A stretch of 62,802 nucleotides of DNA, counting the filler, from Dugesia japonica (Eukaryota): the NCBI GenBank assembly GCA_001938525.1. It is 6 parts of 6 records of this genome, joined end to end, with 100 filler letters (N's around TTAATTAATTAA, not from the genome) between each part and the next. Parts side by side here need not be neighbours in the genome. Positions count along the whole stretch, not along the records: positions 42,131 to 53,566 come from MQRL01623142.1; 5 more parts are not named here. One strand, written 5' to 3'. Below are positions 19,766 through 59,952 of this stretch, one piece after another. Position numbers and translations under genes: made by a program. Position 1 is the first letter of the stretch. Every line of letters starts with the position of its first letter. The notes under the pieces were generated by a model. The model was not told the DNA's origin, made no database searches, and saw only the letters and a program-made list of their open reading frames with translations.

Positions 19766-20369
19766 TTGTTTCGAAATACTACGAATACGTTATTCAACTA
19801 CTGGTATTCTACTCCTGGTTACAATTGGAATGCAGGATTGAGATTTAGTCAAGTTCATTTAAAATATGTAACTAGAAATAACTTTGATAAAATATTAAAA
19901 ACAGAACGTGGAATAAAAGAAGGATTTTCAGGTGTAACTGGTAATTGTTATTTAAAATCTTCACCTAATAATACAATCAAGAATCTTGACCTAAATAGTT
20001 TATATGCAGCTTGCATGACAAATAGATTATCAACAAGAGTATTTATTGAATGTAATGATTTAAATTATATTCAAACAAATAATGTTGAGATTAAACCAGG
20101 AATATTAAAAGATTACATTTATGATGTAGATTTAGATTATCCAGATGATATAAAAGAAAAAACTAAATATTATCCTCTTTGTGTTGAACAACAAGATATT
20201 GTATATGAAATGTTAAGCACTTTACAAAAGAATTTATTAGGTAAAAATAAACTCTAACCCTAAAAATAAAGAGCTTACATTGAATCAATTAAGTAAAAAG
20301 AATTATGTTTTACTAGGTTCTAATTTAGATTATTTCTTAAACAAGGAATGATTTTAAAAAAGATTCATA
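19766..20369 (+). pseudogene. Protein-primed family B DNA polymerase fragment (Polinton/adintovirus type)
   Basis: YSTPGYNWNAGLR..ERGIKEGFS..LDLNSLYAACM (motif A)..YIYDVDLDYP..YYPLCVE, then after a stop KKNYVLLGSNLDYFLKQGMILKKIH. Confidence 0.88.
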
Positions 20370-22825: not shown

Positions 22826-23063
22826 TGTTGATTAATTGCGATGCAGATATCCAACTAGGATTTTTATATCCATTCCACTTTACACAATATTGTTTATTCT
22901 GTTTTGTACACTTTGACCTTATAATGTTTTCAATTATGAATACTGATGGCAGAGGAATCACTTGTAGTTCATGTTCATAAAACTTTCTTTGCACAATATT
23001 ATTCTCATAATCTTCAATGACAGGATACTGTTTGGTATTGATCCTAATTACATCAAATTTCAA
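22815..23063 (-). pseudogene. C-terminus of a Polinton-type integrase with a chromodomain
   Basis: IEDYENNIVQRKFYEHELQ (integrase C-terminal FY..ELQ motif) followed by FIIENIIRSK..QYCVKWNGYKNPSWIS (chromodomain VKW.GY...SW). Confidence 0.82.
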
Positions 23064-23987
23064 ATTTTACTCAAAACAAGATTGCTTTGAATCCATTTGA
23101 TGATGAAAGATATATTTTAGATGATGGAATTACAAAACTTCTAAATGGTTATATATAAAATTGCTTAAATCTCAATCACCTCTAAGACATACAAGAAGAG
23201 TAAATTTTTAAAAACTAAACGAGTATATTTAATACATGAAAGTGAAGATTATTATTTCTTGAAAAATTAATTTGTGTAGTAAAAAGGAGATGTAGTAAAA
23301 TTATTTTTAAAGAAAAACCCAAAACAGTTTCATAAAAATAAATATAAATATATTAGAAAACAATTACTAGAATGTTTTGATTTTGCTAAATCAAAAAATA
23401 TTGATTCAATTTTCTGGGAAAGATATTTACCTTTTCTTTTAGCTGATGATTTATTAAACAATTAATAAACAAAACCCATATCTAAACCCATATATTTTAC
23501 CCTTTCCTTGCTGGATTATTTTTTCACATTTATATTATATCCAAAATCAATCAGTTATAGTATCCAATTTAACAGAAAAGTTAAACTCTGTAAAAGATTT
23601 CCCATGGAATGGAAAATTTGGTCAATTATTTTCTCAAGAATGTTTAGGTTGGTTCATTTCTAGGCGATTCAGTCAATTATTTACTCACAGCGGTCAGATT
23701 TCTGTTGACAGTACTCAGATTTTAGTTGAATGTACTCAGAATTTAGTTCACAGTGCTCATAGTTTGGTTGATATGTTGGGTATTATTACTCAACAAAAGA
23801 TTTATGGTTCGAAAAATATATAATTATGATTTTACGGGTGTTAAATTCTTTATCTTTAATTGTGTGTCGATACAATATTATATAATCNNNNNNNNNNNNN
23901 NNNNNNNNNNNNNNNNNNNNNNNNNNNNNNNTTAATTAATTAANNNNNNNNNNNNNNNNNNNNNNNNNNNNNNNNNNNNNNNNNNNN

Positions 23988-29820: not shown

Positions 29821-30673
29821 ATTATTATTATTATTATTNNNNNNNNNNNNNNNNNNNNNNNNNNNNNNNNNNNNNNNNNNNNNNNNNNNAAGATAATTAT
29901 TATTTTTACTAAATAAAATAGTAGTGAATTAGAGAAAAAAGAGTTCTTAAAATACAGAAAAAAATGTTCGTTAAAATGATCAATGTATTTGATCTATGAA
30001 AATTTAGGTAATAATATTGTCTCAATTTCTTCGCTGATAGTCAAATTGATACATTTTTAATTAACATTCAATAATTATTGATAATTAATTAATTAATTAA
30101 TTCTTGTTGCTTTCAATGGAAATTAATTATTTGCAGAGAGTATGATGTTACAATCACTGATTTCGGAAAATGTTGGCGAACTGGAATTGCATTCAATGCA
30201 CTTATAGACGTGTTCAGTCCTAATCTAGTCGATATGAAAATAGTTATGCAAAGCACACCACAAGAAAATATTGAGAGAGCATTTGATATTGCTGAAAAGC
30301 ATTTAGGCATCGCTAAATTGTTAGACTCAGAAGGTGGGTTCTTTATGAAAATCGTTTGATTATTATTGTTATATTATTTAATGTTCAGATGTAATTGCTG
30401 AGAAACCTGATGAAAAATCGATAATGACATATGTCTCACAATTTCTAGAATTGAAAATTACAAAACCCGTCTCACCAGCAAAGAAAATTAAATTATCAAA
30501 TCAAGTCAGTTTTATTATAAATAATAAAGAATAACTTGTTTAAATAGGAACCTGTTAAATCTATTGAAAAAGAAACCAATGAAAAAGTTAAGCGTTTCAT
30601 TTTAAATGTTAAAGAATCTCGACTTGAAAAATTGAAACATGTCGATATCACAACATTTAACGAAATATTTAAA
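23988..30673 (+). CDS. Nesprin-1/MSP-300/calmin-like protein, N-terminal tandem calponin-homology actin-binding domain, partial spliced gene
   Basis: Exons in consistent phase: 23988-24082 (VKDLFVDIRDGLMLIYLLEVLSG), 24138-24221 (KLHFLSNIKIALNFL), 29390-29482 (IKLVNINPLDIVEGKSSIVLGLIWSIILYFQ), 29532-29656 (IEE..KLLTWIQ), 30137-30333 (DFGKCWRTGIAFNALI..NIERAFDIAEKHLGIAKLLD), 30389-30504 (DV..EKPDEKSIMTYVSQFL), 30548-30673. Confidence 0.92.
24946..25573 (+). mobile_element. Internally deleted hAT transposon (Blackjack-like ends) in an intron
   Basis: Ends tacgggtgccaggta...tacctggcaaccctg with an imperfect 8-bp TSD (gctgtatt/tctgtatc). Internal IPVSNANVERIFRVMGNLWT..VKSELCI is the hAT dimerisation motif. 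Confidence 0.8.
25680..28462 (-). mobile_element. Decayed hAT transposon (TTF zinc finger/DUF4371, Tip100/ZMYM-like transposase), 3' truncated
   Basis: Minus-strand pieces NDPCLWP..IGPKQ, VYCFSCKIF..GYCDWKH..HEKSKAH, YYAIILDSTPDIS..EHITIIVRFV, FYVPCASHSLNL and VKPVSDTRW. Terminus cagggccacgccaagcgggg at 28462. Confidence 0.9.
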
Positions 30674-32415
30674 GTTAGATTATTTTTTAAATATTTATTT
30701 ATTATTAAAAGAAAATTTTAATTTTTCTACAAATAAAAATCAATATATGTTAAAATAAATAAAAGAAAAATTAATTGCAATAATTTTCTGTATTTATCAC
30801 ATTTAAAAAAATTTATGTTTGAAAGTCAGGCAAAAAATAATAATGCTTAGTCAAATTTGTCATAGATTTTTATTTTTTTTCCTATCAATTTATATTTACA
30901 ATAAATCTGGATGACATTTTAATCAGTTTTTTTTATACAGCATATGTTTTTATTTATCATAGTTTCTGACATTCTCTTCTATTTCTGTGAGTTTCCTATG
31001 CCAATTGAGTTCATTAATGAGAAATAGTCAACACAATTAAAATATGTTTAATATTTTAATAGAATAATCAATATTTTGATTAATAAATTATTTGTTTAAA
31101 TTAATGGGTTGAATATCGAAGAAATTTATTTTCAAAAAAAACTATAATTTGATAAATTTTATCGACAGAAAAATTCAATTAATTCAATAACTAATATTAA
31201 AAGAAATTAATCATTAAAATGTAGTAATTGTCAATATTAAAATTAATAAAAATTTTTTTATTATTAACATTTATGTTAGTCAAATATCTATTTTAAAACA
31301 TTAAATTAGTAAATAAATTATTTAATAAATATTTATTTGAAAATAATATTTATTTTAATATTTATTAATAGTTTATTTGATAGATTTTCATAAGTTTATT
31401 AGTTATTTCGTTTATTAATAAATTTTCTATTTGTTAATATGCTTCTTTTTAGAGATTTATTATAACTGTCTATACTCGTTCGTTTTTTTTATTAAACAGT
31501 AATTAGTTTTGATTGTTTTCTAAATTAGTTATTATGACAGTGATTATTATAATTTTTTATTTCGACCATTCAAAGGAGGCATAAAAATACATTGGAAAAT
31601 CGTAACAAATAGCATCAATAAATAAATAAAAATTAAAAAAGATAATAGGCAATAATCAAAAAAAAATTCTACAATCTTAAAATAGTAAAATCAATAAATT
31701 TATATTAGAATTGTTTAGATTTTAGAATTAAAGATACTATATTTCTCTATTCTTTAAAAATTTTCACATATTTAGTATCCTTTTTGAACATTGATTTTTT
31801 ATTAAAAAAATGTAATAATGATAAAATTTTAATTTATTATTTATTTTAACTGTTTAACATAAATATGTAATTTATTTTCAATTATTTATTTAATTTAAAT
31901 TTAATCAATATTGAATTATTCATACCAAATTATTTTGGTAAACACATTTTTGTATTTAATTATAAATGAAATTCAATAAGGAAATGAAATATAATAGTTT
32001 AGAAAATTATACGGTAATTAAATTAATTAATTAATTAGTTAATTAATATAATTAATTAATTCAATAATATTGATATCACGAACATACTTATATTTGTCTG
32101 TATTTTAAATGTTGAGATTTGTTATTTCTAAAAAAAGTTGTTATTGAGAAGTAATAAAATATTTTATTTAAGTCTTTAACAGTAAATTTTGTTAAATTTA
32201 AAACATAATCAGAGAATTCTTTCAAGGTTTATTAATAAATCAAATATTTAACAAGAATATGTGTTTTGTTATTTGTTTGTCAATTAATAAATTCTCCACA
32301 AAATGTATGTTAAAANNNNNNNNNNNNNNNNNNNNNNNNNNNNNNNNNNNNNNNNNNNNTTAATTAATTAANNNNNNNNNNNNNNNNNNNNNNNNNNNNN
32401 NNNNNNNNNNNNNNN

Positions 32416-33300
32416 GCTGTCCTTGTGGATATTAGTCGTTTACTATTTTTGCTAATTATTTTGATCATTTTTTGGATTTTTTCTATCCAATCTATTTCTG
32501 CTACTAATTCTTTATTCTCTACTCTAGTTCTTATTTCCAAGGTCTCTTTAGTTATGCAATTTTGGCCTTGCTCTTTCTTGATATCTTGCTTCTCTCTTGG
32601 TTTTGTGGCTTCCTGATTTACTTCCTTTGTTTCATCCTTTATCTGCAGCATATTTATCATTTCCATATGAGCTTCCAGTTTTGGTTTTTCAATCCGGAAT
32701 GTAGCAAAATCCAATTTTGTCCCCAGTAACAATTTCGGCATTAAATCTGATCCCAATACTGCATCTACATTGGTTTTCATTACCAAGAATTGTTGCTTTA
32801 TTGTTTTTTTCTTGAAGTTGTGCATTGCATTCTAATGTTCCAATAATCTGCACGGTTTCCCCATTAACACCTGTTGTATGGGGTTTTATTTCTTTTCTTT
32901 TGTTTCGGGATATATTTTTTATATTCAATACTGATCGGGATGCTTCCGTATCTAAAAGTGTTTTCAGTGGTTGGTTGTTGATTCGTACTATTAATGAAAG
33001 GCTAAATCCGCCATCTTGAGTTTCTACTACGGCTATTTGCTCATTTTGTTCCTCTTCGTTAGGTTCCGTGTTTGTTTTATCTTCTGGGGTTATTTTATTC
33101 TCATTTTGCACCATTTCCTTTGGTGCCTTTTCTCCTCCATTGAGCTTTAGTTCGGTTAAGGCTTTTCTTAGTCGAGTGATTCTTTGATGATTACTTTTCA
33201 TTTTTTCGCGTAACTGATGGTTTTCTTTGAACAGGATTCCTGCTATCTCTTTATTCCCGGTATTTTCAGCATCTTTATCTTGTCGTTTTTGATGCCATTG
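32416..33300 (-). pseudogene. Gypsy-type retropepsin (aspartic protease) region, decayed
   Basis: VRINNQPLKTLLDTEASRSVLN (DTG mutated to DTE)..TGVNGETVQIIG, then in a shifted frame FLVMKTNVDAVLGSDLM. Confidence 0.82.
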
Positions 33301-33499
33301 TACATATTTAATTGGAAAACGGTTTTCTTTTTAATTACGACTTCTTATGGCTTCTGTTAGATTCTTTGGTCCTGCAAATTCTATTCTGTGACATAGTCTT
33401 GCGATATGGCCCTATTTTCCACATATATAACACACTATATTTTTTATTTAACAATCTTCAGCTTGGAGCCCTTGTTTGTTACAATTGTAACATTTTTGT

Positions 33500-42130: not shown

Positions 42131-42331
42131 GTCGAAACCAGGGTTGACATTCTCCCCACTAAATCGAAGAAAGATGTTTTACAGTTTAGAGGATTACTGA
42201 ATTATTATAGGCTTCATATCAATAATTTCAATGTGTAGAGAGCTTCAAGAAATTAAAAGAGATGCTGGCGACAATACTTATATTGAGAACAGTAGACCAT
42301 GCTAAAATATTAATGTTCAGACAGAGGCCTC
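42131..42331 (+). pseudogene. Gypsy pol fragment (RT thumb/RNase H connection)
   Basis: PTKSKKDVLQFRGLLNYYRLHINNF / SFKKLKEMLATILILRTVD / VQTEAS matches P...K.V..FLGL.NYYR.FI.NF..F..LK..L...P.L..TDAS. Confidence 0.75.
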
Positions 42332-43931
42332 NNNNNNNNNNNNNNNNNNNNNNNNNNNNNNNNNNNNNNNNNNNNNNNNNNNNNNNNNNNNNNNNNNNNN
42401 NNNNNNNNNNNNNNNNNNNNNNNNNNNNNNNNNNNNATAGGAAAAGAACTATACACAATTCAATTTCATTTCCATATATTTTTAAATTCCAATTTTAATC
42501 TGAGTCAATAAATTTTATCGACTTTCTATTCTTATATATAGTTGATATATTATATTATAGAGTTTTTAGTTTAAATTGTTTTTAAATTATGTCTATTTTT
42601 TTATTTGATATTTATTTTTTTACTTGATAAATGTTTTTTAATTAATGAATATTTTCAAAATATAAATACACTGACTTTTAAACAGATAAAAAATGACATA
42701 AATAATAAAAAACAACTAATGAAAGAAAAGCTATTGTAGTTGATTTCTTGAAAAACAAATTAAGGACGAATAATCTTGTTTCCTGATGAAACAGGATAAA
42801 GAGTTATGAGGAGTTACATGTTGCCATAAAGAGTTACCACCCTTTATGAAAAGGTCAGAAAACGGGGAAAAGCAATTTAAATAACATCTAGAATTAAATC
42901 GAGAAACAAAATGTTGAAAGAATAATTACCAATAACACCATAAAATGCTTAGTAGGTATAAATGTATTTGAAGAATATAATTGTTTTTAACGTTTTTTTT
43001 AGATGAGTTTGAAGTTCTCATCGGATCACTAATGTCAAAACTCATTTCCATAAAAGATTTATTCACCAAACAAATACTATATCCAACACTATTTGTTTAT
43101 TCAAAAAAATTAAAATTCCATATTTTAATTGGTAGAAATTTTTCAAATATTAAAATTTTAAACAAAATTTTTACTTTATTAATTATTCGTCATTTAAAAT
43201 TTAAAACAGAATGCACATTCACCATTTAAATTTTCATTCCAAATTTAAATATTTTTAAATAAAAAGATTTTAAGAAAAATTATTTCCAATCACACAAAAA
43301 TTTCAACTCGCTTTTCAAAACATAATCACGATTTTAGTTATATTTATTATTATTATTTAGATATTATTGTTTTATCTGGTTAAAAATCAGTGTATTATAT
43401 TTTAAAAGTATTCATTAATTTAAAAAAAATAAATATCAATTAAAATAAACAAAATTAAACTAAAAATGTGTGATATATATGATATATATGTGTGAATGGA
43501 TGTATGTATGTACATGCAATTTTATATGAAAAATTTCACAATTTTATAACAAAAAAAAATTTATATAATAAAAGTAACATTTTATAATAAAAAATTTAAT
43601 ACAACCAGTAAATAATAAATATTTTCTAGGAGTATTTTTAACGTATATAAAATTTTATAATATGTATTTTTTAAAATAAATTATAAAAGTGAATTTTAAA
43701 TATTAAACAATTTAAACATTTCTCTAACNNNNNNNNNNNNNNNNNNNNNNNNNNNNNNNNNNNNNNNNNNNNNNNNNNNNNNNNNNNNNNNNNNNNNNNN
43801 NNNNNNNNNNNNNNNNNNNNNNNNNNNNNNNNNNNNNNNNNNNNNNNNNNNNNNNNNNNNNNNNNNNNNNNNNNNNNNNNNNNNNNNNNNNNNNNNNNNN
43901 NNNNNNNNNNNNNNNNNNNNNNNNNNNNNNN

Positions 43932-44700
43932 TTGTTTTCAAGTATAAGTCGTCGAATTTTTGGCCGAATTGCATTTTCTCAAGTTTATTCTTTTTCTTCA
44001 AATTTTCAACTGTTTTGCCGAATAAGCTGTTGTTCATGAGCTTATAGTAATTTTTTGTCGATTTCATTTATTGTCTTGTGAAAATTTAACTGCCTCGTGA
44101 ACTGTTATAACTTGCGCATTTAGCTGCAAGTCAATTTGCAACAGTCTTTAGTTCACTACATAGTTAATCTTTAGATAATGAGTAAACATCAATTTTTTAC
44201 TTTGTTTCCTGGAGCACATTGATGTTCAGATTTAATGGGCAGGTGACTGTGATAATCCTGAAGTTTGTTGGGAATCACAATGTCAACTTCTAGAATGTAT
44301 CCGTACTGTAAAGAATGTATATTGGCATATGTACATTCTTCTAACACTACTTTTAATCCGCTTTATCATAAGCTGCGTTAGAATCCATTCCTTTCAATGT
44401 TTTTATTCATACGCCTATCCAAATTAACTACGGCAGTGTAATGAAACCTTTGTTCATCTTCTAATAATAGTAAATATATTTTCTTACCTTGGTTATTTAG
44501 ATGTATGAACTATTTCAAGATTTGCATGTTTCATTACAACGTCATAGTCTTCAACAGTTTGTGTGTTTCGAAACAAGACATTGATTAATAGTCGTGGGTT
44601 TTGCTTTTCAAATACCAAGATATTCGCCAGCTACATTGGCATATCCTTTCATTAAATACAATCTCCATCGGATATTCTTTACATTTTGTTGTTCAATGTT
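43932..44700 (-). pseudogene. Old, deleted protein-primed PolB gene (Polinton/adintovirus type)
   Basis: FEKQNPRLLINV..IYLLLL..HYTAVVNLDR (N-terminal part), YGYILEVDIVIPNKLQDYHSHLP and KNYYKLMNNSLFGKTVEN (motif B), with stops and large deletions. Confidence 0.85.
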
Positions 44701-44739
44701 TATTACTATTTACAATTACATATCATTTAGATAAAACAT

Positions 44740-47236
44740 AAACTAAAATATTCTGAACATTAATTATTGCTTGTTTCCTCACAAGATTATTAAGGGTTAG
44801 AATACAACTGCTTCCCGTAAGCCGATTATTATTGCTAATTTTTGTAATCTTAAAAGATAGTCTCCAACTATATTCTAATTAAGATCTGATAATAATCTTT
44901 TCATTCAATAAATTAACATCTTTCACGAAGAACATATCGCTTAAGAAGACTGCTCTATTCGANNNNNNNNNNNNNNNNNNNNNNNNNNNNNNNNNNNCTC
45001 TGTGTGTATTCTAAATTGTATTTTGCAATCTACATTTCTGTGATTATTTGGAATTATTTTTCTATCCAACTATTCGCTAGAATTATATGTTTCATATTTA
45101 ATTTGGACACATAAAGTTTCAATATTTAATGACACTTATATAGGTCAGTTTCTATAGAAGGTTCATTAAAAGAACCGCCAATGTTTATATTTTCTTCATC
45201 TAAAATTTTTTTGTAANACTATATTTCCAAATCCTACTGTCCTATCCTCTTCATTCATTTCTTCGATCATTTAATTATTACTCAAATCTTCTTCTGGATC
45301 ATCAATAACCTCAGGTTCACTATTTTTTATGACAATCACTTCCAGATCTAATTTCATTTTCATACAAGAAAATTCTTCCAATAATAATTGCTTTTTACTA
45401 AAAATNNNNNNNNNNNNNNNNNNNNNNNNNNNNNNNNNNNNNNNNNNNNNNNNNNAAACTAAAATATTCTGAACATTAATTATTGCTTGTTTCCTCACAA
45501 GATTATTAAGGGTTAGAATACAACTGCTTTCCGTAAGCCGATTATTATTGCTAATTTTTGTAATCTTAAAAGATAGTCTCCAACTATATTCTAATTAAGA
45601 TCTGATAATAATCTTTTCATTCAATAAATTAACANCTTTCACGAAGAACATATCGCTTAAGAAGACTGCTCTATTCGATAATGTACATGTTTTAACTTCT
45701 TCATCTCTGAAAACTCTGTGTGTATTCTAAATTGTATTTTGCAATCTACATTTCTGTGATTATTTGGAATTATTTTTCTATCCAACTATTCGGTAGAATT
45801 ATGTTTCATATTTAATTTGGACACATAAAGTTTCAATATTTGATGACACTTATATAGGTTAGTTTCTATATAAGGTTCATTAAAAGAACCGCCAATGTTT
45901 ATATTTTCTTCGTCTAAAATTTTTTTGTAAAACTATATTTCCATCTCCTACTGACCTATCCTCTTCATTCATTTCTTCAATTATTTAATTATTACTCAAA
46001 TCTTCTTCTGGTTCATCAATAACCTCAGGTTTACTATTTTTGATAACAATCACTTCCGGATCTAATTTCATTTTCATACAAGAAAATTCTTCCAATAATA
46101 ATTGCTTTTTACTAAAAATAAAACGGGTTAAGTGACGTGCGTGCAAACTATAAAATTTGTTATATGTACTTAAACTTAGTGTAAGGGATGAAGTATTTCT
46201 CTCGTAATAAATAAGACTAATATTCCTGCATTATTTCATGACAGTCAACATTATGTCTAATGTTTGTACAAGAGGTTTTGTATATTGCACAATTATCTAA
46301 AAGTATATTTATTTTATAAAAGTTGAATAATTAAAATATAAATCAATAAAATCGTCAACAAAAGTCATTAAAAGTATTATCGAAACTTGAAAATATTTAC
46401 AGCATCGAAATAAACTCAACATATTTATTACTCTTAAAAATAAAATTCTATAAAAAATTAAGAAATAAATCTCATAAAAAGTAATAACAAAATATATATT
46501 ATTGAAATAAATTCAACAATCGTCAAAAAATAAAGTCATTAAGTTAAATCATTAAATTGAATTGATATCATTACGTTAAAATTTGATATTATGTTAAATT
46601 TTAAACATTACTATTAAAATTGTGATAATTGACTTAGCAAGGTAAATAAAATCATTAAAGTAGAAAATTTTAAAAAAAAAGGAAAATATTACATAAAAGT
46701 TATTAAATTATTGAATCATTAACTTAAAATGAAATTATTAACTTAANNNNNNNNNNNNNNNNNNNNNNNNNNNNNNNNNNNNNNNNNNNNNNNNNNGATC
46801 TAATTTCATTTTCATACAAGAAAATTCTTCCAATAATAATTGCTTTTTACTAAAAATAAAACGGGTTAAGTGACGTGCGTGCAAACTATAAAATTTGTTA
46901 TATGTACTTAAACTTAGTGTAAGGGATGAAGTATTTCTCTCGTAATAAATAAGACTAATATTCCTGCATTATTTCATGACAGTCAACATTATGTCTAATG
47001 TTTGTACAANAGGTTTTGTATATTGCACAATTATCTAAAAGTATATTTATATTATAAAAGTTGAATAATTAAAATATAAATCAATAAAATCGTCAACAAA
47101 AGTCATTAAAAGTATTATCAAAACTTGAAAATATTTACAGCATCGAAATAAACTCAACATATTTATTACTCTTAAAAATAAAATTCTATAAAAAAATAAG
47201 AAATAAATCTCATAAAAAGTAATAACAAAATATATA
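44740..47236. repeat. Near-identical duplicated blocks across gaps (44740-45405 vs 45455-46120; 46059-46498 vs 46797-47236)
   Basis: Almost base-identical copies with a few SNPs, separated by 50-N gaps. Likely uncollapsed haplotypes or scaffold overlaps. Confidence 0.85.
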
Positions 47237-47254
47237 AGTAGATAGTAAATACCC

Positions 47255-47500
47255 TAAATTAGGACAGGGTAATTTTTTTACCGAAAATTTTTGAGTGTTA
47301 AATTTTGAGTGTAAATTTTTGAGTGTAAAATTTTGAGTGTAAAATTTTTTTACTAAAATTTTTTAACCAAAATTTTTTTACCAAAATTTTTTTACTAAAA
47401 TTTTTAATGTAAGTGTTAAGTGTAGATACTAAATTAGGACAGGGTATTTTTTACCAAAATAAATTTTAATGCAAGTGTGATATTAAATTAGGACAGGGTA
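47255..47500 (+). repeat. Terminal repeat motifs of the Polinton
   Basis: taaattaggacagggta occurs three times (47255, 47430, 47484), aaattttgagtgt-like units four times, and aaaattttttt(a)c several times. Confidence 0.85.
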
Positions 47501-47545
47501 TTTTTTATCGAAAAATAAAAATGTTTCAAATTTTTTCTATAGAAA

Positions 47546-48178
47546 ATGAGTGCACAGAAAAAAGTTATTCAAGAGAAAAAAGTTGTTCCACAAGAAAAAG
47601 TAACATCTGAATTAACTTTAGTTACATTAATAAAATCAATACAAGGTTTTGATAAAACAGAAGAGTTGAATATTAATGAATTAAAAGAATATTTAAAAAA
47701 TGATTTAACAAGAGAAATTGCAGAAGGTTATTTAAATTATCTTAACGATTTGTATAAAAAATTAGAAGAATTAAAATTACCAGAAGAAAATAAAAATTTG
47801 TTTAAAAAGTTAATAACTATTNNNNNNNNNNNNNNNNNNNNNNNNNNNNNNNNNNNNNNNNNNNNNNNNNNNNNNNNNNNNNNNNNNNNNNNNNNNNNNN
47901 NNNNNNNNNNNNNNNNNNNNNNNNNNNNNNNNNNNNNNNNNNNNNNNNNNNNNNNNNNNNNNNNNNNNNNNNAAGAAAAATTAAAACCTGTAAAAATTGG
48001 TGATTATATATTTTCAGTTCATTATTCTCCTGGTGAAAAGAGAAATGTTACTGGAAAACGTATAAATGTTTTAAGTGAAAATTTAAATCCAAACAAACTT
48101 TCATCAGAAAAATTCAAACGTATTCCAGCTTTAAAACAAATTACGGGATTTGATAGAGTATATGTTAAAAAAGCTTAA
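47546..48178 (+). CDS. Hypothetical viral protein (K/E-rich, gapped)
   Basis: First ORF after the terminus; frame open on both sides of an N gap; no motif recognised. Confidence 0.55.
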   Translation: MSAQKKVIQEKKVVPQEKVTSELTLVTLIKSIQGFDKTEELNINELKEYLKNDLTREIAEGYLNYLNDLYKKLEELKLPEENKNLFKKLITIXXXXXXXXXXXXXXXXXXXXXXXXXXXXXXXXXXXXXXXXXXXXXXXXXXXEKLKPVKIGDYIFSVHYSPGEKRNVTGKRINVLSENLNPNKLSSEKFKRIPALKQITGFDRVYVKKA

Positions 48179-48185
48179 TAAATAA

Positions 48186-48303
48186 ATGGATACAGTTTTC
48201 TATAAAATATTAAGTAATTACAATTTTAAAAACAACTCTATACAAAATTTTTGTAAAGTAAATAATTTCAACGAAAAAACAGTAAAGAAATATTTAAAGA
48301 AAT
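48186..48303 (+). CDS. Start of a small HTH-like viral ORF (rest lies in the gap)
   Basis: MDTVFYKIL..SIQNFCKVNNFNEKTVKKYLKK has a helix-turn-helix-like pattern and starts 7 bp after the previous stop. Confidence 0.35.
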
Positions 48304-48577
48304 NNNNNNNNNNNNNNNNNNNNNNNNNNNNNNNNNNNNNNNNNNNNNNNNNNNNNNNNNNNNNNNNNNNNNNNNNNNNNNNNNNNNNNNNNNNNNNNNN
48401 NNNNNNNNNNNNNNNNNNNNNNNNNNNNNNNNNNNNNNNNNNNNNNNNNNNNNNNNNNNNNNNNNNNNNNNNNNNNNNNNNNNNNNNNNNNNNNNNNNNN
48501 NNNNNNNNNNNNNNNNNNNNNNNNNNNNNNNNNNNNNNNNNNNNNNNNNNNNNNNCACTAAAATATTTCTTTATAAA

Positions 48578-50155
48578 ATGGATACTATTGATTTAGACAA
48601 TAATATTGAATTTTCACATTCAGCAATTAAAAATGATATACTTAAAATTTCACCTTCATCAGGTTCAATAAATAATTTAAATGCAAATGGTGATGTGGTA
48701 TTTCAATCTTTACAATCTACAAATCCATTAGACATTTGCAATTCATTATTATATTTCAGAATTGAGATCAATATCCCAGAAGCATCAAAAGATAAAATAA
48801 CATTAGAAAATAATTTCTTTCCAAGTTTATTTAAATCTATGAGATTAACNTTAGGATCATCTCATATAGAAACTGTAAGTGATCCAGGAGTAATTTCAAC
48901 AATGTTAAATTTTATAACCACAACTGAAACATATAAAAAAGAATATGGTCAAATGTCAGGTTGGTTACCAGATATTAATAAAGGAGATACTGAAGTAAAA
49001 AGTTGGGAAAATAATTTAGGTTATTATAATAGAAAGAAACTTTATGCAACTAATAAATTTGAAGGTTATTTTCAATTAAGAAATTTATTTGGTTTCATGC
49101 AAAATTATAATCGACTTTTATATAATACAATGATANNNNNNNNNNNNNNNNNNNNNNNNNNNNNNNNNNNNNNNNNNNNNNNNNNNNNNNNNNNNNNNNN
49201 NNNNNNNNNNNNNNNNNNNNNNNNNNNNNNNNNNNNNNNNNNNNNNNNNNNNNNNNNNNNNNNNNNNNNNNNNNNNNNNNNNNNNNNNNNNNNNNNNNNN
49301 NNNNNNNNNNNNNNNNNNNNNNNNNNNNNNNNNAAATCAAATTTAGATGCTGGAGGTTATTATTCAATTAAAATTAGTAGTTTAGCATATCAACCAAGAT
49401 TTATTTTAATTTGTATAAAAGATTCAGAAATTTCATTTCAAAAGAATAATAATTTATTTATACAAAAATCTACAACAACCATAAAAGGTGTTGCACCAGC
49501 AGCAAATACAATAAAAAATCATTATTTGAAATCTATACAATTACAATTAAATAATACTTATTATCCAATTAATGAATGTNNNNNNNNNNNNNNNNNNNNN
49601 NNNNNNNNNNNNNNNNNNNNNNNNNNNNNAAACCAATTCAAGTTTCATATTTAAATAGATTATCTGCCAAATCAAATTTAGATGCTGGAGGTTATTATTC
49701 AATTAAAATTAGTAGTTTAGCATATCAACCAAGATTTATTTTAATTTGTATAAAAGATTCAGAAATTTCATTTCAAAAGAATAATAATTTATTTATACAA
49801 AAATCTACAACAACCATAAAAGGTGTTGCACCAGCAGCAAATACAATAAAAAATCATTATTTGAAATCTATACAATTACAATTAAATAATACTTATTATC
49901 CAATTAATGAATGTAAATTTAACATGGAAAATAATGAGATGGTTTTTCCTTATATGAATTATGTAAAATGTTGTCGAGAATTTTTTAATAAAATGAATAT
50001 TAATAATGTTGATGTTACACTTCATTTAACAAAAGATCCAGATTTTTAAAGGAACTCTTTATTGGTGTATTCTTGAAGAGAAATATATTGAAATGAAATT
50101 AGCAAATAATAAAATTGTTATGATTGAAAATGTAAGAGGAGTTGATATCAAATAA
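48578..50155 (+). CDS. Major capsid protein (double jelly-roll, adintovirus hexon/Polinton MCP type); gapped, partly duplicated in the assembly, one late frameshift
   Basis: NLNANGDVVF..NSLLYFRIEI..ITLENNFFPSLFKSMRL.LG...IETVSDPGVISTMLNFI, F.LRNLFGFMQNYNRLLYN, PRFILI, LKSIQLQLNNTYYP and MVFPYMNY follow the Polinton MCP pattern. Confidence 0.85.
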
Positions 50156-50167
50156 TAAATATAATAA

Positions 50168-51466
50168 ATGAGTTATAAGAATTTCATATGTGATAATTGT
50201 GGGAAAATATTATTAAAGAAAAATAAATCAAGACATTTAAATTTATGTATAAACAAAATGAAACAAGGAGGTGATCTTCAAAATTCAAGTGTAATATCTA
50301 AAATTTTAAAACCAATAACAACAGAAAAATATCCTGGAGAAAGACATCTATTTAAACATAATTATACAGGACCAGGAACTAGATTAGATATTAGATTAGA
50401 TGAGAATTTAGTTCCAAAACCTGGTGAAGAACCAATAAATCAAATTGATGCAGCAGCATTAAAACATGATATTGCATATGCAAGTGAAGATCTTAGAGAT
50501 AGACATATTGCTGATGTAAATTTAATACATGATTTAAATAATATTGAAAATCCAACTTTAACAGAAAATTTTCAAAGTGCTCTTGTAAAATTAGCTATGA
50601 AAGGTAAAATCATGATTGGACAGGGACCAAGAAAAAGTAAAATTATAAAAGAAGAATCTGATAACGAACAAAGTGATGATAAAGAAATTTTATCAAAAGA
50701 ACTTCATAAAGAATATAGAAAGACAAAACATTTTAGAAAAGTAGTTGTTTTTTGAAAAAGATGATATTTGGTCTGCAGATTTAATATTTCAGGGAATTGA
50801 AAGAAAAGGTAAAAATGTAATATTAACAGTTATTGATTTATATACAAGATTTGCATTTATTGAATTAAGTAATAACAAAAGTGGAAAAGCAATAAGAGAT
50901 GCATTTGAAAAATTCTTGAAAAAAGTTCTAGAACTCCAAATAAATTATGGGTTGATGAAGTTAAAGAATTTTATAATCAACATTTTAAATCTTTTTGTAA
51001 AAAAAATAATATTGAAATGTATTCAACTCAAAATAAAGGTAAAACAGTTGTAATTGAAAGATTCAACCTAACTTTTAAAAATAAGCTTTTTCACCATTTT
51101 ACTGCCGTTGGGAATCAAGATTTAAACGAAGAGCTTTTAGAAAAAATTGTAAATGATTATAATAACACTAAACATTCTAGTATTAATATTACACCTCAAG
51201 AAGNNACAAAAAATCCAGAAAGTGTTGAAATTGAAATTCCAAAAGTTTACAATCAAAATATTAAATTAAATATTGGTGATCACGTAAGAATAACTAAAAT
51301 AGGAAAAACATTTCCTAAAGGTTATACTTTTAAATGGTCAAAAAGAATTTATGTTATTACTAAAATTTATCATGAACAACCTATAACATTTCAAATCTCA
51401 AATCTTAACGGTAACAAAATACTCGGAAGATTTTATAGTAATGAACTTCAAAAAACATTAATATAA
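50168..51466 (+). CDS. Zinc finger + parvovirus-type phospholipase A2 domain + retroviral-like (rve) integrase fusion, split by two compensating frameshifts
   Basis: CDNCGK..HLNLC; HNYTGPGT..PINQIDAAALKHDIAY..RHIAD (Ca loop and HD dyad); KELHKEYRK..RKVVV / DDIWSADL..LTVIDLYTRF / PNKLWVDEVKEFYN..IERFNLTFK..DYNNTKHSSI..GYTFKWS..GRFYSNELQK. The first and third pieces share a frame. Confidence 0.9.
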
Positions 51467-51467
51467 A

Positions 51468-51713
51468 ATGGATTATAAATGTACAGGTGATGAAGAAACA
51501 TTTGATAAAATAAATGAAGAAATACAAAACAAAAGATATGAAATATCTAATAGTTATGATGAAACTAAAAAATGTCTTGAAGAGGAATTAGAAGTATTAT
51601 TAGAAGAGAAGTATGAAAGTATGCGTGAAATAAATCACATTCAAAATTTAATATTTAAATATAATTGTACTAACTCTAGTGAATGGGAATTTGTATTAAA
51701 ATATGGTTATTAG
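51468..51713 (+). CDS. Small acidic coiled-coil hypothetical viral protein
   Basis: 81-aa ORF packed 1 bp after the integrase stop and 2 bp before the ATPase start. Confidence 0.6.
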   Translation: MDYKCTGDEETFDKINEEIQNKRYEISNSYDETKKCLEEELEVLLEEKYESMREINHIQNLIFKYNCTNSSEWEFVLKYGY

Positions 51714-51715
51714 AA

Positions 51716-52463
51716 ATGTCATATTTCTGGAATAAAATTATAACAAAGTTTAATAATAAAGTCCTTCCAAATAATTTTAGACTTTTAATGATTGGATCTT
51801 CAGGTTGTGGTAAAAATGTTTTATTAATGAAAATGTTATTAAATGTTATTATTTTTAGATTATGATAATTTAATAATTTATTCAACAACTATTAATCAAT
51901 TTGAAATTCAATTATTATNTATTGGTTTAGAAAATGGATTAACAAAAGAAGAAATAAGTTTAATATTTGAAAAACAAAATATAGTGCCAAATAATTACAC
52001 TACACCATATCAAGTTGTACATTATTTCTTAGATAAAAAATTAGTTACTAAAAAACAAAGAAGTTTAATTATAACTTTAAGTGATAAACCTAATGAAATA
52101 ATTTCTTGTGATAAACTTTCTAAGGAAAAGAAAANNNNNNNNNNNNNNNNNNNNNNNNNNNNNNNNNNNNNNNNNNNNNNNNNNNNNNNNNNNNNNNNNN
52201 NNNNNNNNNNNNNNNNNNNNNNNNNNNNNNNNNNNNNNNNNNNNNNNNNNNNNNNNNNNNNNNNNNNNNNNNNNNNNNNNNNNNNNNNNNNNNNNNNNNN
52301 NNNNNNNNNNNNNNNNNNNNNNNNNNNNNNNNNNNNNNNNNNNNNNNNNNNNNNNNNNNNNNNNNNNNNNTATGATTATGAAGTAAATCTTCACTGGAAA
52401 ACTAAATATAATTATTTTTATTTAAATAAAGAAACTGATGAAATGTTAGATTATCTTTTTTAG
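51716..52463 (+). CDS. A32/FtsK-like DNA packaging ATPase, frameshifted and gapped
   Basis: LPNNFRLLMIGSSGCGKNVLL (Walker A), then FLDYDNLIIYSTTINQ. A tandem 10-bp duplication aaatgttatt (51831-51850) shifts the frame. Walker B falls in the N gap. Confidence 0.87.
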
Positions 52464-53308
52464 TCTAACGTTTCAAAGTATATTCTAATTCTTTTTATTT
52501 CTTTTTCTATTGTTCTAAATGACCAATTTGATTTTAATATTTCTGGATATTGATTAGCAAATTTATATAATTTTATTATTTTATTTATATAATTAATTTT
52601 ATAGTAAATTCCAATTAGTTGTAAATGTATTATCATTTGATTATTACTTTCAAATTTAGATTTTAACAGTTCAAAGAAATAACCTAAATTATAAATACTT
52701 ATTAAAACAATTCTTTTTCCAATATTAAAATTATTATGCCAAAGTTTAATATTATCATTTACATTTTCTAATGATTGATCTATCACCGGTGATATATTTG
52801 GTAACATTATTGTTTCACTTAAATTAAATGTTTCTGGATTAATATTATTCACAAGAGATTTTGAAAAATTTTTATTAAATTCAATTTCATTATTAGACAT
52901 TAATTTTACTATTGATTTTTCTTCAATTATTTCTTTTTGATCTTCACATATTTGAATTTCTTCATCTTCACATATTTGATTTTGAATTTGAATTTCTTCT
53001 TCACTTTCATACATTTGAATTTCATCTTCACTTTCATACATTTGAATTTGAATTTCTTCATCTTCACTTTCATACATTTGAACATGTTTCTTAGGTTTTT
53101 TTTCTAAATTATCATATTCTCTATTCCAAGATTTTTCATTAGATTTATTAAAACCAATCATATCACCACGTACAAACATATTTTCTTTTTTTCTTTTTTC
53201 TACATATTTTTTAAGATGTTTAAGAAGTTCATTTTGATTTGTCATTTCTAAATAACTTTCAAATTGATATTTACATTTATGACAACTGATAAAAAATAAT
53301 TCTTCCAT
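52460..53308 (-). CDS. Hypothetical viral protein with acidic QMYESEDE repeats and a helical C-terminal domain
   Basis: Intact 282-aa ORF convergent with the ATPase (stops overlap). N-terminal CxxC; three to five repeat units at 52935-53085. Confidence 0.75.
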   Translation of the reverse strand: MEELFFISCHKCKYQFESYLEMTNQNELLKHLKKYVEKRKKENMFVRGDMIGFNKSNEKSWNREYDNLEKKPKKHVQMYESEDEEIQIQMYESEDEIQMYESEEEIQIQNQICEDEEIQICEDQKEIIEEKSIVKLMSNNEIEFNKNFSKSLVNNINPETFNLSETIMLPNISPVIDQSLENVNDNIKLWHNNFNIGKRIVLISIYNLGYFFELLKSKFESNNQMIIHLQLIGIYYKINYINKIIKLYKFANQYPEILKSNWSFRTIEKEIKRIRIYFETLD

Positions 53309-55189
53309 TTACTATTTCTTATAAAATTAATTTAACTGTTCGCATGCGAACAGGTGTCATTATATTCCAAGTTTCAATTTTAAGTCATTTATAACTTTAG
53401 TTTGATTTTCAACTAATAATTTTAAATTTTCGTTATGAGATTTAGTTTTTTCTTTTTTTGTTGCCGTTATCATTTCATGAACATCATTTACTATTTTCTT
53501 AGAAATCATTAATTCTTCATCAGTAAGTATTTCATCATTAACTGCTTTCTGTTGAAATAAAAATAANNNNNNNNNNNNNNNNNNNNNNNNNNNNNNNNNN
53601 NNNNNNNNNNTTAATTAATTAANNNNNNNNNNNNNNNNNNNNNNNNNNNNNNNNNNNNNNNNNNNNAACTCATATTTTCTAACAACTTTACTGATAATAA
53701 GGTATTTAAATAAAAATAAACCCATGAAAATCAAAGTGCACGCAAGGAACCAAATAGCAAACAAAGAAGCAGAAGGATAACGAGATGATTAAAATATACT
53801 GAAATATTTAAATTATTTTAAATAAAAAGCATAACATATTAACTCTTACTCGCTATCACACAGTCTTATTGTATTCTTTTATTAATATATGCGACTTTTT
53901 TAAAGATTATTTAAGTGAGGTCTTTAAAAATATTCATTAAAATCAAATAGAAAATAGTGAAAATATGTTAAATATAGCTAAATATAGCTAAATAGTGGTA
54001 AACCCGGAAAATATAGGGTAAATGATCGTACATGACAAAAGATTGAGAAATGGTAGGAAAATAAGTCAAAATTGATAAAAAGTAGACAAATTAAGCATAT
54101 TAAATGATTTTGTATAGAACAAATGCAGTATAAGTAGTGACTGGATTTACTCTATTAAATATTTTCTATATCCAAACTCATATTTTCTAATGGTAACATT
54201 TTTATTCTCTATGATAAGTCCATAATTTTTCTATGATGAAACTAATTTTCCATATCAAAACCATTTAATAATGTTTACATTACAATCTAAAGTTTGATTT
54301 NNNNNNNNNNNNNNNNNNNNNNNNNNNNNNNNNNNNNNNNNNNNNNNNNNAAATTATCTAATGCTTAATAAAAATTTCAATTATTATAATTAAAGTTTGA
54401 AATTAACTATTTTCATTAAGGTTATTTTTAACCATGTTATTCTTGCTTAAATTTTAAATTTTTAAATTTTTTATCTAAAAGTTACTTTAAATTTTCTATG
54501 ATGAAACTAATTTTCCATATCAAAACCATTTAATAATGTTTACATTACAATCTAAAGTTTGATTTTACTAAAAATGTCACTGATAATTTGGTATTTAAAA
54601 GAAAATGAAACCCATGAAAACTAAAGAGCAAGCAAAGAAACCAATGTTCATGCAGGGCTCAGATGAAAAGCAAGCAAATACTGAAGAATTTTATCGATTG
54701 GAATACCTATATTCCACAGGACAAACATATTATTTTCATGTTGAAACCTATATTGAACTCAAATTGTAATGGACTTAATCCTTTATCCAATATAATAAAC
54801 CATGAGTTATTACTATTATTTGAAACTTAATAAATAAATATAAAGAAAATATAGGAAAATCCGACTAAATATGAGCAGACTATCGGAAAATTGGGCAAAA
54901 TCTCTATCTAATAAGATAAGAAATATTTTTATCGATAAATGTTTTTTATGAAAAATAATCACCATCGAATTTTGCATCGATGGATGTAAAAATCTCGAGA
55001 AAAAAATTTTTCAAAAATTTTCGAAAGTTCAGATGTTCTCCCGGATTCCCATAAAAATTTGATTTAAAAATTTTAAAAATCTGAAAATTTAAACAAGAAT
55101 GACCTAATTTCACCAATTTACCACAAAAGATTAAAATAATTTTAAAAAACTTGAAAATTTAAACAAATTCTACATTTTCCATGAATTTC

Positions 55190-55980: not shown

Positions 55981-56506
55981 GTGCTGGCAATGACTCCCAC
56001 TATCCCTCTACTGCTTTCTTTGTTTCGGCAATATCAAAATAATTTTTTGTCTTCAAAATACATTTTTCTACATCATCACTAATTTTGAAAATGCCATGGT
56101 GTATTTCTTCTTTTAACAAATCCTATAATGTGTTGGTCGCCATATTAGGTGAATTCAAAATCTCACAACTTTCCATAAATTTTTGTTGATTATTACATGT
56201 TTTTTTATAAAATGAAAATTGATGAAGAACAATTCACAGTATTCAAACAAATAATTTGTAAAATTTTAATAAAATATATTTTTTAAAAATATCGATTTTC
56301 CTTTTTTAAATAATTTTTTTAAATCATAATTTCATAAAACAATTTTTATTCTTTTATAATTTTGCATAATACAAAATATTTATTTTGATTTTAAAATACT
56401 TTAATTTCATAAAATAATTTTAGATAATTTTAAAAATTTTAAAAATTTATCTTCATTGTTTTCATTTGAAAATTTCAGAAATAAATTTTAAAATAATATA
56501 TATGTA

Positions 56507-57757
56507 TTAGGTTGGTAAGAAAATAATTGCGGTTTTATAAAATATTACTTTAAAAGTAATTATTTAAAATAACTATTTGTTTTAATATATTGATCTATAT
56601 GTCAATTATACATTATACAAGAAATACTTTATTTTTATTACTATTTTATTGTGAAATATTATTTTTGGAAGACATGTGGGATTAATATCAAATACGAGCA
56701 ATATTCCTATATGAATTTAAACTGGGATCTAAAGCAGCAGAGACGACTTGGCGTTTGGCAATGAAACTGCAAAAGAAAAACCGGTGCAATTTGGTTATAA
56801 AAATTCAGGAGTGGAGATGAGAGCCTTGAAGATGGGGAAGGTCGGAGACGTACATCAGAAGTTAGCAAGGACAATTTGAAGGTAAGGTTCGAAGCAGGTC
56901 CAGACGTAACAACTCGGAAGCTTGGGAAGAGTTTATGCGTAATTCATGTAATAGCTTTATATCACCTCCATCAACTTAAAAAAGTACGGAAGCTCGATAA
57001 ATAAAGTCCGCATGAATTGAATCATTTTCAGAAAAACCGCCGTTAAGAGATCTACTCGGTGAGTCTGTTTAGAAATAAAAACCAATCCATTTCTTGATTG
57101 AATTGTGATTTGGAACGAAAAATGGATTGTATACAACCATAAAAAGCGAACATCGCAATGGTTGGACAAAGGTAAAGCAACATATCATTTTTCAACATAT
57201 CAAAACCTAAATTGCATCAACAGAAGACAACGGTGACGGTTTGGTGGTCCACACCCGGTCTGGTTCATTACAACGTTTTAAATCAAGGTGAAACTATGAA
57301 GGCAGAAAAATATTGACGAAATGCAACGCAAATTGAAATCTATGTGCGCTGCATTAGTTAACAGAAAACATCCCATTATTCTTCACGACAATGCCCGTCC
57401 ACACGTCGCAAAACTATCCCTGCAAAAACTAACTGATTTAGGATTTTAAAGTATGCTTCATCCCCCATACACCCCGAAACCTGTCGCCAACCGACTATCA
57501 TTTTTTTTATCATCTATCTAATTTTCTTCAAGAGAAAGTCTTCCATAACGACAATGATGTTAAAAATGCCTTAATAGAATTCATCGAATACATGACAGCG
57601 GATTTCTATTCTATTGGCATAAATAAATTTATTTCTCGTTGGGAGAAATATATTGATTGTAATGGTTCATATTTTGAATAAAATATATTTATGTTTTCCA
57701 AGAATTTTACTTTTACTTTTATATGTTAAAAACCGAAAATATTTCTTGCCAACCTAA
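56507..57757 (+). mobile_element. Near full-length mariner element (cecropia/Hsmar1-like ends), inactive
   Basis: TA|ttaggttggtaagaaaataattgcggtttt ... aaaaccgaaaatatttcttgccaacctaa|TA; 1,251 bp long. Confidence 0.95.
56674..57681 (+). pseudogene. Mariner DD34D transposase pseudogene
   Basis: IRAIFLYEFKLG..KFRSGDESLED, IVIWNEKWIVYN (first D to N), MVTVWW-like, HDNARPH, HPPY..LSPTDYHFF, GSYFE*. Several frameshifts and stops. Confidence 0.92.
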
Positions 57758-57815
57758 TAATATTTATAAAAATTAAACAATCTCAGACATCTGAAATACA
57801 TGAATCGTCCTTACA

Positions 57816-59952
57816 GGTTTATTGATTTTATTTAGTTTTATAGTGTTTAATAAACTTGGATAGTATAATTATTATATAAAATAAATGTATAATGGTAAAT
57901 TGTATCGCAAATCACGTTATATTTGTATGAAAGTACTGTATGCGTATGATATTCGTACATACGTTTGAGTATACTTATTAAGATTTGTATAAAAGAAGTA
58001 TATTTCCAATTGAAATTAATGCTTTATTTAATAAAAAGAGTAATATACTTTATGAAATTACTGTTTGCCTAAGAAACCAGTGAATAAGCGTTTACTTTGA
58101 AAATTAAAATACTTAACAATAAGATATAGAACAGATAATAAAATGCAAAACAAATAATAAAAATATTAATGAAAATATTTAATTATGAAAATGGTCTATG
58201 AACTTCTCCTTGTATCCACTTATTATATGTGTAGCCACTCCTTTCCTTAATCTTAAGAGTATTTATTATGTAGCATAGTGACTAGTAACAATTTATCACT
58301 CAAATGTCATGAAAAATGATTATTTAATAGAATTATTTAGTTTATGTATTACATAAATAAGAGTTAGAATGTATCAGTTTACAAAAAATATACATCGTTC
58401 ATCACCATTTATCCCCCTCACTGCTTGCTCCTCCTCCTCCTTCTACTCGTCTGCTCATGTGCTTGCTTTTCTGCTTTCTTTGTTCCTTCTTTCTCTAAAT
58501 ACCGAATGATCAGTTTTATTTTTAGTAAAATCAATATATAATTGTATGTTTTCATATTCTGCCTATTATTTATACATTATTATAATGGTTTCTGAGTATT
58601 CTTAAGCATTTTGGATACTTAATGGCTTTTTATTATTTTATAGCTTTTTAGAATTTTCCATGGTTTCATGAGATTTGATGCACTTTTTTCATTAGATATG
58701 ATTGGTTTACATGATTTATTAAGAATTTCATATAGAAAATACATTAAGTTTATTAATTTACATCAATAGCATATAAATAATAGCAATGGTATACAAATTT
58801 GAAAACATCACAATTTTACTACTTGTTGACCTAATATTTACAGTCTTTATACAACAATTTCTACAAAGTATAATCATGTTTCATAGAAATGGACTAATTT
58901 TCATAAATTCATAATAGATCACTTAAATTTAAGCAGTAATACACTAGATTCAATACAACATACACTAATGACTTAAATCCATAATATATATATTAAGTAC
59001 ACTAATTGATACATTAATGTTATTTAGAACTTTATCAATTCCATTAATTTCATATAAATTTCAACAGGTATAAACTGAAGAATATTCATACCGTGTAAAA
59101 ATTTAGACAGATTTCGTAAAGACAAAGTCCAAAACCTATTAAAATTAATATTATCAAGACTAAAACCTAATAAGTAATATACATTTAGGTGTGTATACAT
59201 GTATGAATTTAATTGGGTAATGTAAACATCCATTGATTGATTGAATCTTTATATAAATAGCCTTAATTTTAATACTTATATCACTGAAGCAATAGTAACA
59301 AATATGTTTAACCATATTATTAAAGATGAAATGATAAAGGAGCATTTACCACCATATGAAGCAGATACAGAAAAGGATTAAACACGAAACTAAAAGCAGT
59401 CATATAATGAAAATAATGCATTCATTTTTTAACATTTCTAATTTTACGGTCATACTTTCAATATGTATGACAGAAAGTAACTTTTATAATTATTAATTAG
59501 CTATTAATATTAATATTACACAGATAATCAGTTGATACAAGGAGAAGTTCATAGACCATTTTCATGAATAAATATTTGCAATAATATGTATCGCGTTTTT
59601 ATTAATTGTTCTGTTTTTTATTATCTGTTCTATATCTTATTGTTAAGTTTTTTAATTTTCAAAGTAATATGTCAATAGATTATACACAGATTTCTTAGGT
59701 AAACAGTAATTTCATTATTTCTTTCTTTACTTTCTTTTTATTGAATTAGCCATTAATTTCAATTGGATATATACTCGTTTCATACAAATCTTAAGTTTAG
59801 TCAGACGTATGTACTAATATCATACGTATACAGTACATTCATAGAAATATAACCTGATTTGCGATACAATTTACCATTATACATTAAATTTATTTAATAA
59901 TTATACAATCCAAGTTCATTAAAACTATAAAACCTAATACAATCAGTAAACC
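57816..59952. repeat. Long diverged inverted repeat (~410-bp arms 57816-58224 and 59523-59952)
   Basis: Colinear reverse-complement blocks such as tgtataatggtaaattgtatcgcaaatca, cttaacaataagatatagaacagataataaaa and atgaaaatggtctatgaacttctccttgtatc. Confidence 0.85.

Follow-up and report, generated by a model that had tools for sequence, protein, structure and literature searches.

A parvovirus-type phospholipase A2 joined in frame to a Maverick/Polinton-type integrase in Dugesia japonica and in intact relatives

The fused gene and its element in the Dugesia genome

The window analysed here is a stretch of 62,802 nt joined from six parts of the Dugesia japonica assembly GCA_001938525.1, with positions 42,131–53,566 coming from MQRL01623142.1. 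It is AT-rich, shows many assembly gaps and contains spliced host exons and retrotransposon remains. On its plus strand lies a fused gene (50168–51466) that in this assembly is divided into three pieces by two frame breaks, one at the T run 50748–50753 and the other within 50908–50925, where either of two A runs may be the site. The first piece (50168–50755) encodes 195 aa comprising a zinc-finger leader, a phospholipase A2 (PLA2), an acidic linker and the first residues of an rve integrase, and it runs without a stop from the finger through the PLA2 into the integrase until the first break ends it. The leader carries a C2HC finger (50189–50248, C8-x2-C11-x11-H23-x3-C27), which was recognised by sequence together with a weak Pfam match (zf-C2HC_3, E 0.03) and falls into a part of the model (residues 1–30) with a pLDDT of 80–92. 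A retroviral HHCC domain was ruled out by the order C, C, H, C and by the position ahead of the PLA2. The parvovirus-type PLA2 domain (50345–50593) matches PF08398 over residues 60–142 with an E of 8e-10, exceeding the curated cut-off, and agrees with known folds as described below. Its motifs are intact: YTGPGT of the GxG calcium loop (66–71), DAAALKHDIAY with the catalytic HDxxY (94–104) and HIAD (113–116). At its borders we find two candidate protease sites, KQGG/D between leader and PLA2 (50261–50275, residues 32–36; GG|X type) and MIGQ/G between PLA2 and integrase (50612–50626, residues 149–153; GX|G type). Between MIGQG and the integrase N-terminal motif ELHKEYRK..RKV (178–192) there is no Met.

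The integrase continues in a different frame in the middle piece (50748–50924, +; rve E 1e-4), which contains the first catalytic Asp (WSADL). The third piece (50912–51466, +) contains the second Asp (WVDE), the Glu (IERF) and a C-terminal domain that ends in ELQKTLI without a chromodomain or a Pfam Chromo match. The initial annotation had described this passage from PLA2 into integrase, the motifs and the D, D and E, and we could confirm each of them in place; its proposed slips, one in the T run and one near an A run at about 50920, correspond to the two breaks located here. Both breaks lie inside the integrase, 3' of the PLA2–integrase junction. When the three pieces were compared singly with the intact 463-aa relative P0001 they gave consecutive matches to its residues 3–216 (56% identity), 217–277 (48%) and 274–461 (50%), and the similarity of the Dugesia fusion to P0001 (E 3e-60) is far above chance. 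The span of 1299 bases is also consistent with the length of near-complete aligned relatives, about 397–484 aa. The Dugesia leader–PLA2–integrase fusion is genuine and not an artefact, and the copy in the window is probably a decayed relic of a natural fused gene and itself non-functional.

The fused gene belongs to a decayed or badly assembled Maverick/Polinton of the adintovirus type, of which we found, besides the integrase with its D, D and E in pieces, a capsid gene, a broken A32-like ATPase and PolB fragments. The double jelly-roll capsid gene (48579–50155, +) ends 12 bases upstream of the fused gene and was identified by PF21738 (E 0.003), by six homologues at 46–63% that carry PF21738 and by tblastn (E 1e-37). 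Directly 3' of the fused gene follows an ORF of 81 aa (51468–51713, +), whose low read depth indicates that it is absent from most copies, and then the packaging ATPase (51716–52463, +; Pox_A32 E 0.003, tblastn E 3e-19), which is broken near 51843 and gapped. The fragments of a protein-primed PolB (43699–46230, upper bound uncertain, minus strand) were assigned by tblastn and the motif KLMNNSLFGKT, with a match to PolB of the loci L014 and L029 over 44008–44302 (E 2e-4); Pfam gave no match for these short pieces. They consist of duplicated blocks and gaps, and the near-identical blocks beside gaps point to poor assembly. Two penton-like (minor capsid) ORFs of L005 and L036 matched nothing in the gappy window, a single distant query for an adenain/Ulp1 protease matched neither the window nor the 43 partial loci of relatives, and no inverted pair surrounding the element was found in 36000–62802, a region with many gaps; any of the three may be concealed by the gaps. 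Within the element or at its margin lies an ORF of 282 aa (52463–53308, −) with short acidic repeats (QMYESEDE) and no Pfam match. Upstream of the virion gene block, at 47254–47514, a 33-base block (TAAATTAGGACAGGGT..) occurs three times together with 14-base tandem repeats; this is perhaps a promoter or origin region.

Several further features of the window were noted. A second, different Polinton is represented by part of a PolB and the end of an integrase, the latter with a chromodomain (Pfam Chromo E 8e-5), at 19766–20342 (+) and 22194–23066 (−). Host exons encode two calponin-homology domains that belong to a single spliced gene (23936–24184 and 30093–30359, +) and a B12-binding, methylmalonyl-CoA mutase-like domain (19134–19391, +). 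Retrotransposon gag/protease remains occur at 32364–33330 (−; aspartyl protease, Pfam E 0.003) and 16099–17732 (+). The element at 56496–57767, which we take from its motifs to be mariner-like, has 64-base inverted ends, and a fold-back element at 57816–59952 has 440-base arms that are 83% alike.

The host carries a large and diverged family of the element. In each of two sequencing runs from different studies about 14,000 contig pieces aligned to the stretch, mostly 90–99% alike, and pieces identical to the window copy reached a depth of 23–31, the summed depth of aligned pieces not being a copy number. At each break site the length of three to four contigs per run deviates from that of the window copy; they account for 7–14% of the local depth, which is far below that of neighbouring bins, so that most other copies were not aligned across the breaks. 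No contig of the two runs spans the whole fused gene. We consider it likely that an intact fused copy exists in this host. From RNA, run X18 gave no reads on the stretch and run X19 gave 43, mostly over the PLA2, none of them at least 99% identical and 93% diverging beyond the match. Transcription is thus at most low-level and comes from other copies, not from the window copy.

Intact relatives and their domain architecture

Among the longer homologues of the first piece, collected in a search restricted to 343–2000 residues that by this limit favours fusions, 32 of 46 combine PF08398 and PF00665 in one chain. The remaining 14 are two proteins with rve and a profile-detected PLA2 and 12 gene models of Lottia gigantea, two of which (P0017 and P0019) read from the PLA2 into the integrase start with the same in-frame junction. 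Searching cluster representatives without this bias, we obtained 763 matches, and within the best 150 of these 26 have both parts and 124 the PLA2 only, many being fragments. Taking all searches together, 44 proteins contain the PLA2 and at least 150 integrase residues (41 distinct at 90%, 33 at 70% and 12 at 50% identity). The junction is spanned in 23 of the 43 metagenome loci and lies in one frame in 21 of these 23, out of frame in two. Furthermore, three ESM Atlas clusters with 184, 111 and 72 members pair the two domains (rve in 93–100%, PLA2 in 78–99%); their scores of 0.82–0.85 mark them as leads on the tool's own scale. The PLA2–integrase fusion is therefore a widespread architecture and not a single-copy oddity. 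When intact copies with PLA2 and integrase as separate ORFs were looked for, the intact relatives proved to encode one chain, and the fusion proposed in the initial annotation stands. Programmed frameshifting and chance fusion were ruled out, the intact relatives being single frames.

Intact fusions adjoin capsid, ATPase or pX-like genes in L001, L002, L004, L005 and L013. The longest locus with the fusion that we obtained has 6.7 kb, and none is a complete element. Scans of viral contigs with an alignment of the fused proteins, a degenerate PLA2 pattern and the capsid protein of a relative gave no match, nor did a scan of prokaryote genomes. With the first piece as query, a sequence search of the PDB returned no match at E up to 1 and an Atlas search no usable one.

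Within 33 representatives of the fused family the catalytic residues are largely kept (HDxxY in 30, the calcium loop in 31, the integrase D, D and E in 31, 32 and 28), and those of the PLA2 are retained across proteins less than 50% identical. The leader is variable: it is of C2H2 type in eight representatives, a C4 ribbon in two and absent or cut off in 23. An added N-terminal C2HC finger had been put forward as part of the architecture; it is present in the Dugesia copy but in none of the 33. The leader of P0030 is a C4 ribbon resembling DUF5679 and that of P0075 is a DUF5679 zinc ribbon. A further Atlas cluster (cluster 4, 52 members) has an rve integrase, with DUF5679 in 31% and no PLA2, corresponding to leader and integrase minus the lipase. 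Apart from one deleted case the linker between PLA2 and integrase ranges from about 2–3 to 73 residues. It contains no Met in the Dugesia copy and in 18 of the 33 representatives, 15 having one; the integrase thus frequently lacks a start codon of its own. The near-complete relatives, with one exception in 34, end at most eight residues past the last integrase motif and have no chromodomain. The absence of a chromodomain thus holds for the Dugesia lineage but not for the architecture overall, as the Atlas clusters of 111 and 72 members are PLA2 plus rve plus Chromo (Chromo in 62% and 90%, respectively).

The structure model of P0001 (mean pLDDT 78.5, pTM 0.48) shows separate folding units with low-confidence joints at both glycine motifs, the pLDDT being below 50 at residues 28–45 and 154–158. 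For its integrase part retroviral intasomes were matched (E 2e-12), and a fold search placed the integrase of a MELD virus first (E 2e-19). In the model of the Dugesia first piece the PLA2 part matches densovirus and parvovirus VP1 and entomopoxvirus PLA2 (E 2e-4 to 3e-4), and against 48,161 chains a rice PLA2 came first (Z 6.7, rmsd 3.7, 93 residues aligned) and bee-venom PLA2 fifth (Z 5.1), which are modest values.

Related arrangements were also observed. A pX-like gene (adenovirus mu) stands alone just upstream of the ATPase in L002 (2378–2923), L004 (2413–2919) and L005 (3503–4066), identified by Pfam in L002 and L005 and by sequence in L004, and all three proteins have KEGG ahead of a hydrophobic stretch. 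In P0202 an adenain-like protease (Pfam E 0.04) replaces the PLA2, with a GxG joint to the integrase and a chromodomain, as a second way of attaching an integrase to a virion protein. In P0075, P0103, P0187 and P0097 the PLA2 continues past the GxG into non-integrase or differently starting domains.

We reconstructed a PLA2-domain tree by a quick method from 113 of 145 sequences (32 at ≥85% identity were removed) and 116 columns. The Dugesia copy pairs with P0001 (98), and 47 of 110 forks are open. Rows with the fusion and rows apparently lacking it form clusters but are intermingled, with 21 changes of which at least five are forced; since rows labelled unfused include fragments of broken genes, single and multiple origins of the fusion are indistinguishable in this tree.

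Glycine motifs at the borders of the PLA2

A GG or GxG motif is found at the leader end (site 1) in 22 of 31 representatives and at the linker start (site 2) in 27 of 33, as against 14 among 8083 windows of eight residues within the integrase part; as the site windows had been chosen at glycine columns of this very alignment, these counts express conservation and not independent enrichment. The motif is in part repeated, with five in the leader of P0201 and two in the linker of four of the 33. The same GxG also terminates 54 of 73 PLA2 proteins with no detectable integrase, and thus it is no peculiarity of the fusion and could have a structural role. KQGG/D and MIGQ/G of the Dugesia copy fit the rule GG|X or GX|G of the mavirus protease as predicted cleavage sites. 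The strict adenoviral preference for M, I, L, N or Q four places before the cut agrees with site 2 of the Dugesia copy and not with site 1, and the relatives have Lys or Tyr there in most cases (K in 14 of 27 at site 2).

A proposed packaged polyprotein and its alternatives

PLA2 is a hallmark of the virion modules of Alpha-class adintoviruses in the accessible text of PMC8502044. To judge from the parts of the sources that describe them, the PLA2X of these viruses (Starrett et al. 2021, PMC8502044) and the 'CAP' of a Spodoptera Maverick (PMC5803895) share with the Dugesia PLA2 the parvovirus type with GxG loop and HDxxY, the Maverick virion gene block and a proposed role in entry. Unlike PLA2X and CAP, which appear there as stand-alone genes with a pX-like end, the Dugesia PLA2 leads in frame into an integrase; its first piece has no Adeno_PX match in Pfam and carries the integrase where PLA2X has its pX-like C-terminus, and pX is a separate gene in the contigs of three relatives. 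The integrase part resembles the rve integrases of Mavericks/Polintons as far as the sections consulted describe them (PMC8502044, PMC11071296), with a DDE core and a C-terminal domain. Unlike the adintovirus integrase with its C-terminal chromodomain, as given in those sections, the protein of the Dugesia lineage has a leader and a PLA2 and no chromodomain, which two other fused clusters do have. From its motifs and predicted fold the PLA2 part is also similar to the VP1 unique region of parvoviruses, in catalytic as well as calcium-binding motifs; the parvoviral enzyme, in contrast, is tethered to a capsid protein and not to an integrase. According to the accessible text of PMC6048507, mavirus packages both an integrase (MV02) and a lipase-like hydrolase (MV13) and uses GG|X and GX|G sites, much as is proposed here for the fusion. 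Unlike the fusion, MV02 and MV13 are described there as separate genes, the hydrolase is an unrelated alpha/beta hydrolase, the capsid is of the virophage lineage and the protease is a viral cysteine protease.

The same pairing appears in the automatic ESM Atlas name 'Phospholipase A2-like/Integrase core domain-containing protein', which is an automatic label only. In the accessible text of the literature (PMC8502044, 10.64898/2026.06.19.733378, PMC3671162, PMC4642659, PMC11161782, PMC10748475, PMC5803895, PMC6048507, PMC11071296, PMC11296320, PMC7805220, PMC7765992), PLA2 (as PLA2X, CAP or phospholipase) and integrase are separate genes wherever both are mentioned. In the passages retrieved from the text of CC papers in PubMed Central and of bioRxiv, we found no description of a PLA2–integrase fusion. 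The fusion, in a group of endogenous DNA viruses that is itself already known, thus appears to be undescribed. The initial annotation had made its novelty depend on the architecture being uncommon in described adintoviruses: rarity is indeed lowered by its frequency in metagenome proteins, but the searched literature contained no account of it.

What is directly observed in intact relatives is a single frame, the retention of PLA2 and DDE residues, conserved glycine motifs where the domains meet and a virion gene block with capsid, A32 ATPase and a pX-like core protein. From this, and by analogy with mavirus, a virion-packaged polyprotein that couples membrane penetration to integration, as suggested at the outset, is a reasonable inference. 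We lean, by a little more than an even chance, towards a virion polyprotein from which cleavage during maturation would release an entry lipase and an integrase bound to DNA. Leader, PLA2 and integrase would be made as a single chain, which would be packed with the genome into the particle via its DNA-binding parts, the integrase and the zinc-finger leader. An adenain/Ulp1-type maturation protease would then cut at the glycine motifs flanking the PLA2. The freed PLA2 would assist the entering particle in its escape from the endosome, as VP1u does in parvoviruses, and the integrase would remain on the DNA and insert it, so that the fusion would serve as one-to-one co-packaging of two entry-stage enzymes. 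In the accessible text of the respective sources, the mavirus protease cleaves at GG|X and GX|G, with the integrase and the cleaved hydrolase present in virions (PMC6048507), the parvoviral PLA2 is required for infectivity, needs GxG and HDxxY and aids endosomal escape (PMC7765992), packaging of Polinton lipases has been proposed earlier (PMC4642659) and no Maverick-Polinton virion has been seen so far (10.64898/2026.06.19.733378). The polyprotein reading is favoured by the breadth of the fusion, the retained active sites, the low-confidence joints of the model, the linkers lacking a Met, the glycine motifs, the KEGG of the pX-like protein and the protease–integrase chain of P0202. It is weakened by the protease query without a match in the gappy window and the 43 partial loci, by the mostly deviating adenoviral P4 residue, by the six of 33 representatives with no GG or GxG at site 2, by the GxG of PLA2 proteins with no detectable integrase and by the 15 linkers that do contain a Met.

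The chain might also be packaged and stay uncut, with the PLA2 tethered to the integrase–DNA complex and opening a way for that complex through the endosome or nuclear envelope, which we regard as unlikely. It would agree with the protease query that found no match in the window or the 43 partial loci, with the adenoviral P4 consensus being mostly unmet, with the six of 33 representatives that miss the site-2 motif, with the wide range of linker lengths and with the parvoviral PLA2, which acts while part of VP1 in the accessible text of PMC7765992. Against it stand the glycine motifs, conserved and sometimes in tandem at both borders, the swappable leader that ends in GG/D and the KEGG of the pX-like protein. 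Quite unlikely in our view is an exclusively intracellular transposon, in which two adjacent genes became fused when the stop separating them was lost and the PLA2 either acts inside the cell, for instance at the nuclear envelope, or is carried along as a tolerated passenger. Such an origin would suit the great abundance of the family in its host, as seen in the contig pieces, the neighbourhood of PLA2 and integrase in the gene block, the intermixing of fused and apparently unfused PLA2s on the tree and the lack of a known virion; however, the PLA2 catalytic residues are retained even among proteins less than 50% identical, and capsid, ATPase and pX-like genes adjoin the intact fusions of the five loci named above. 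That the fusion results from decay or faulty assembly, or that ribosomes reach the integrase by programmed frameshifting out of a PLA2 gene that is otherwise separate, is practically excluded: the two breaks of the Dugesia copy, the gappy assembly with its duplicated blocks and the two out-of-frame contigs of 23 would allow it, but the breaks lie beyond the junction inside the integrase, and dozens of independent intact single-frame relatives, including P0017 and P0019 of Lottia gigantea, refute it.

The polyprotein that is packaged and cut would predict two small cut sites, three products and equal amounts of PLA2 and integrase in particles. More tentatively, and at somewhat less than an even chance, it could be that Polintoviricetes include a large, undescribed branch whose integrase is packaged as the tail of a Gag-Pol-like core polyprotein that is cut by the capsid maturation protease. 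As part of the same proposal, this polyprotein would consist of a swappable zinc-finger leader, PLA2 and integrase, and in another lineage of protease and integrase.

In summary the Dugesia copy is only a relic, and its value lies in the family that it indicates. Such proteins carry the label of hypothetical protein or transposase, and PLA2 and integrase are split in published genome maps, so that annotation is affected as well. The question addressed is by which route a Maverick/Polinton integrase reaches a new nucleus, in a group from which no animal particle has been seen. An integrase obligatorily on one chain with an entry lipase that, by its residues, appears catalytically intact would be difficult to account for in an element confined to the cell. 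If the proposed polyprotein is true, it would be a DNA-virus parallel to the polyprotein packaging of retroviral integrase and would provide sequence evidence that these 'transposons' integrate directly from an infectious particle.
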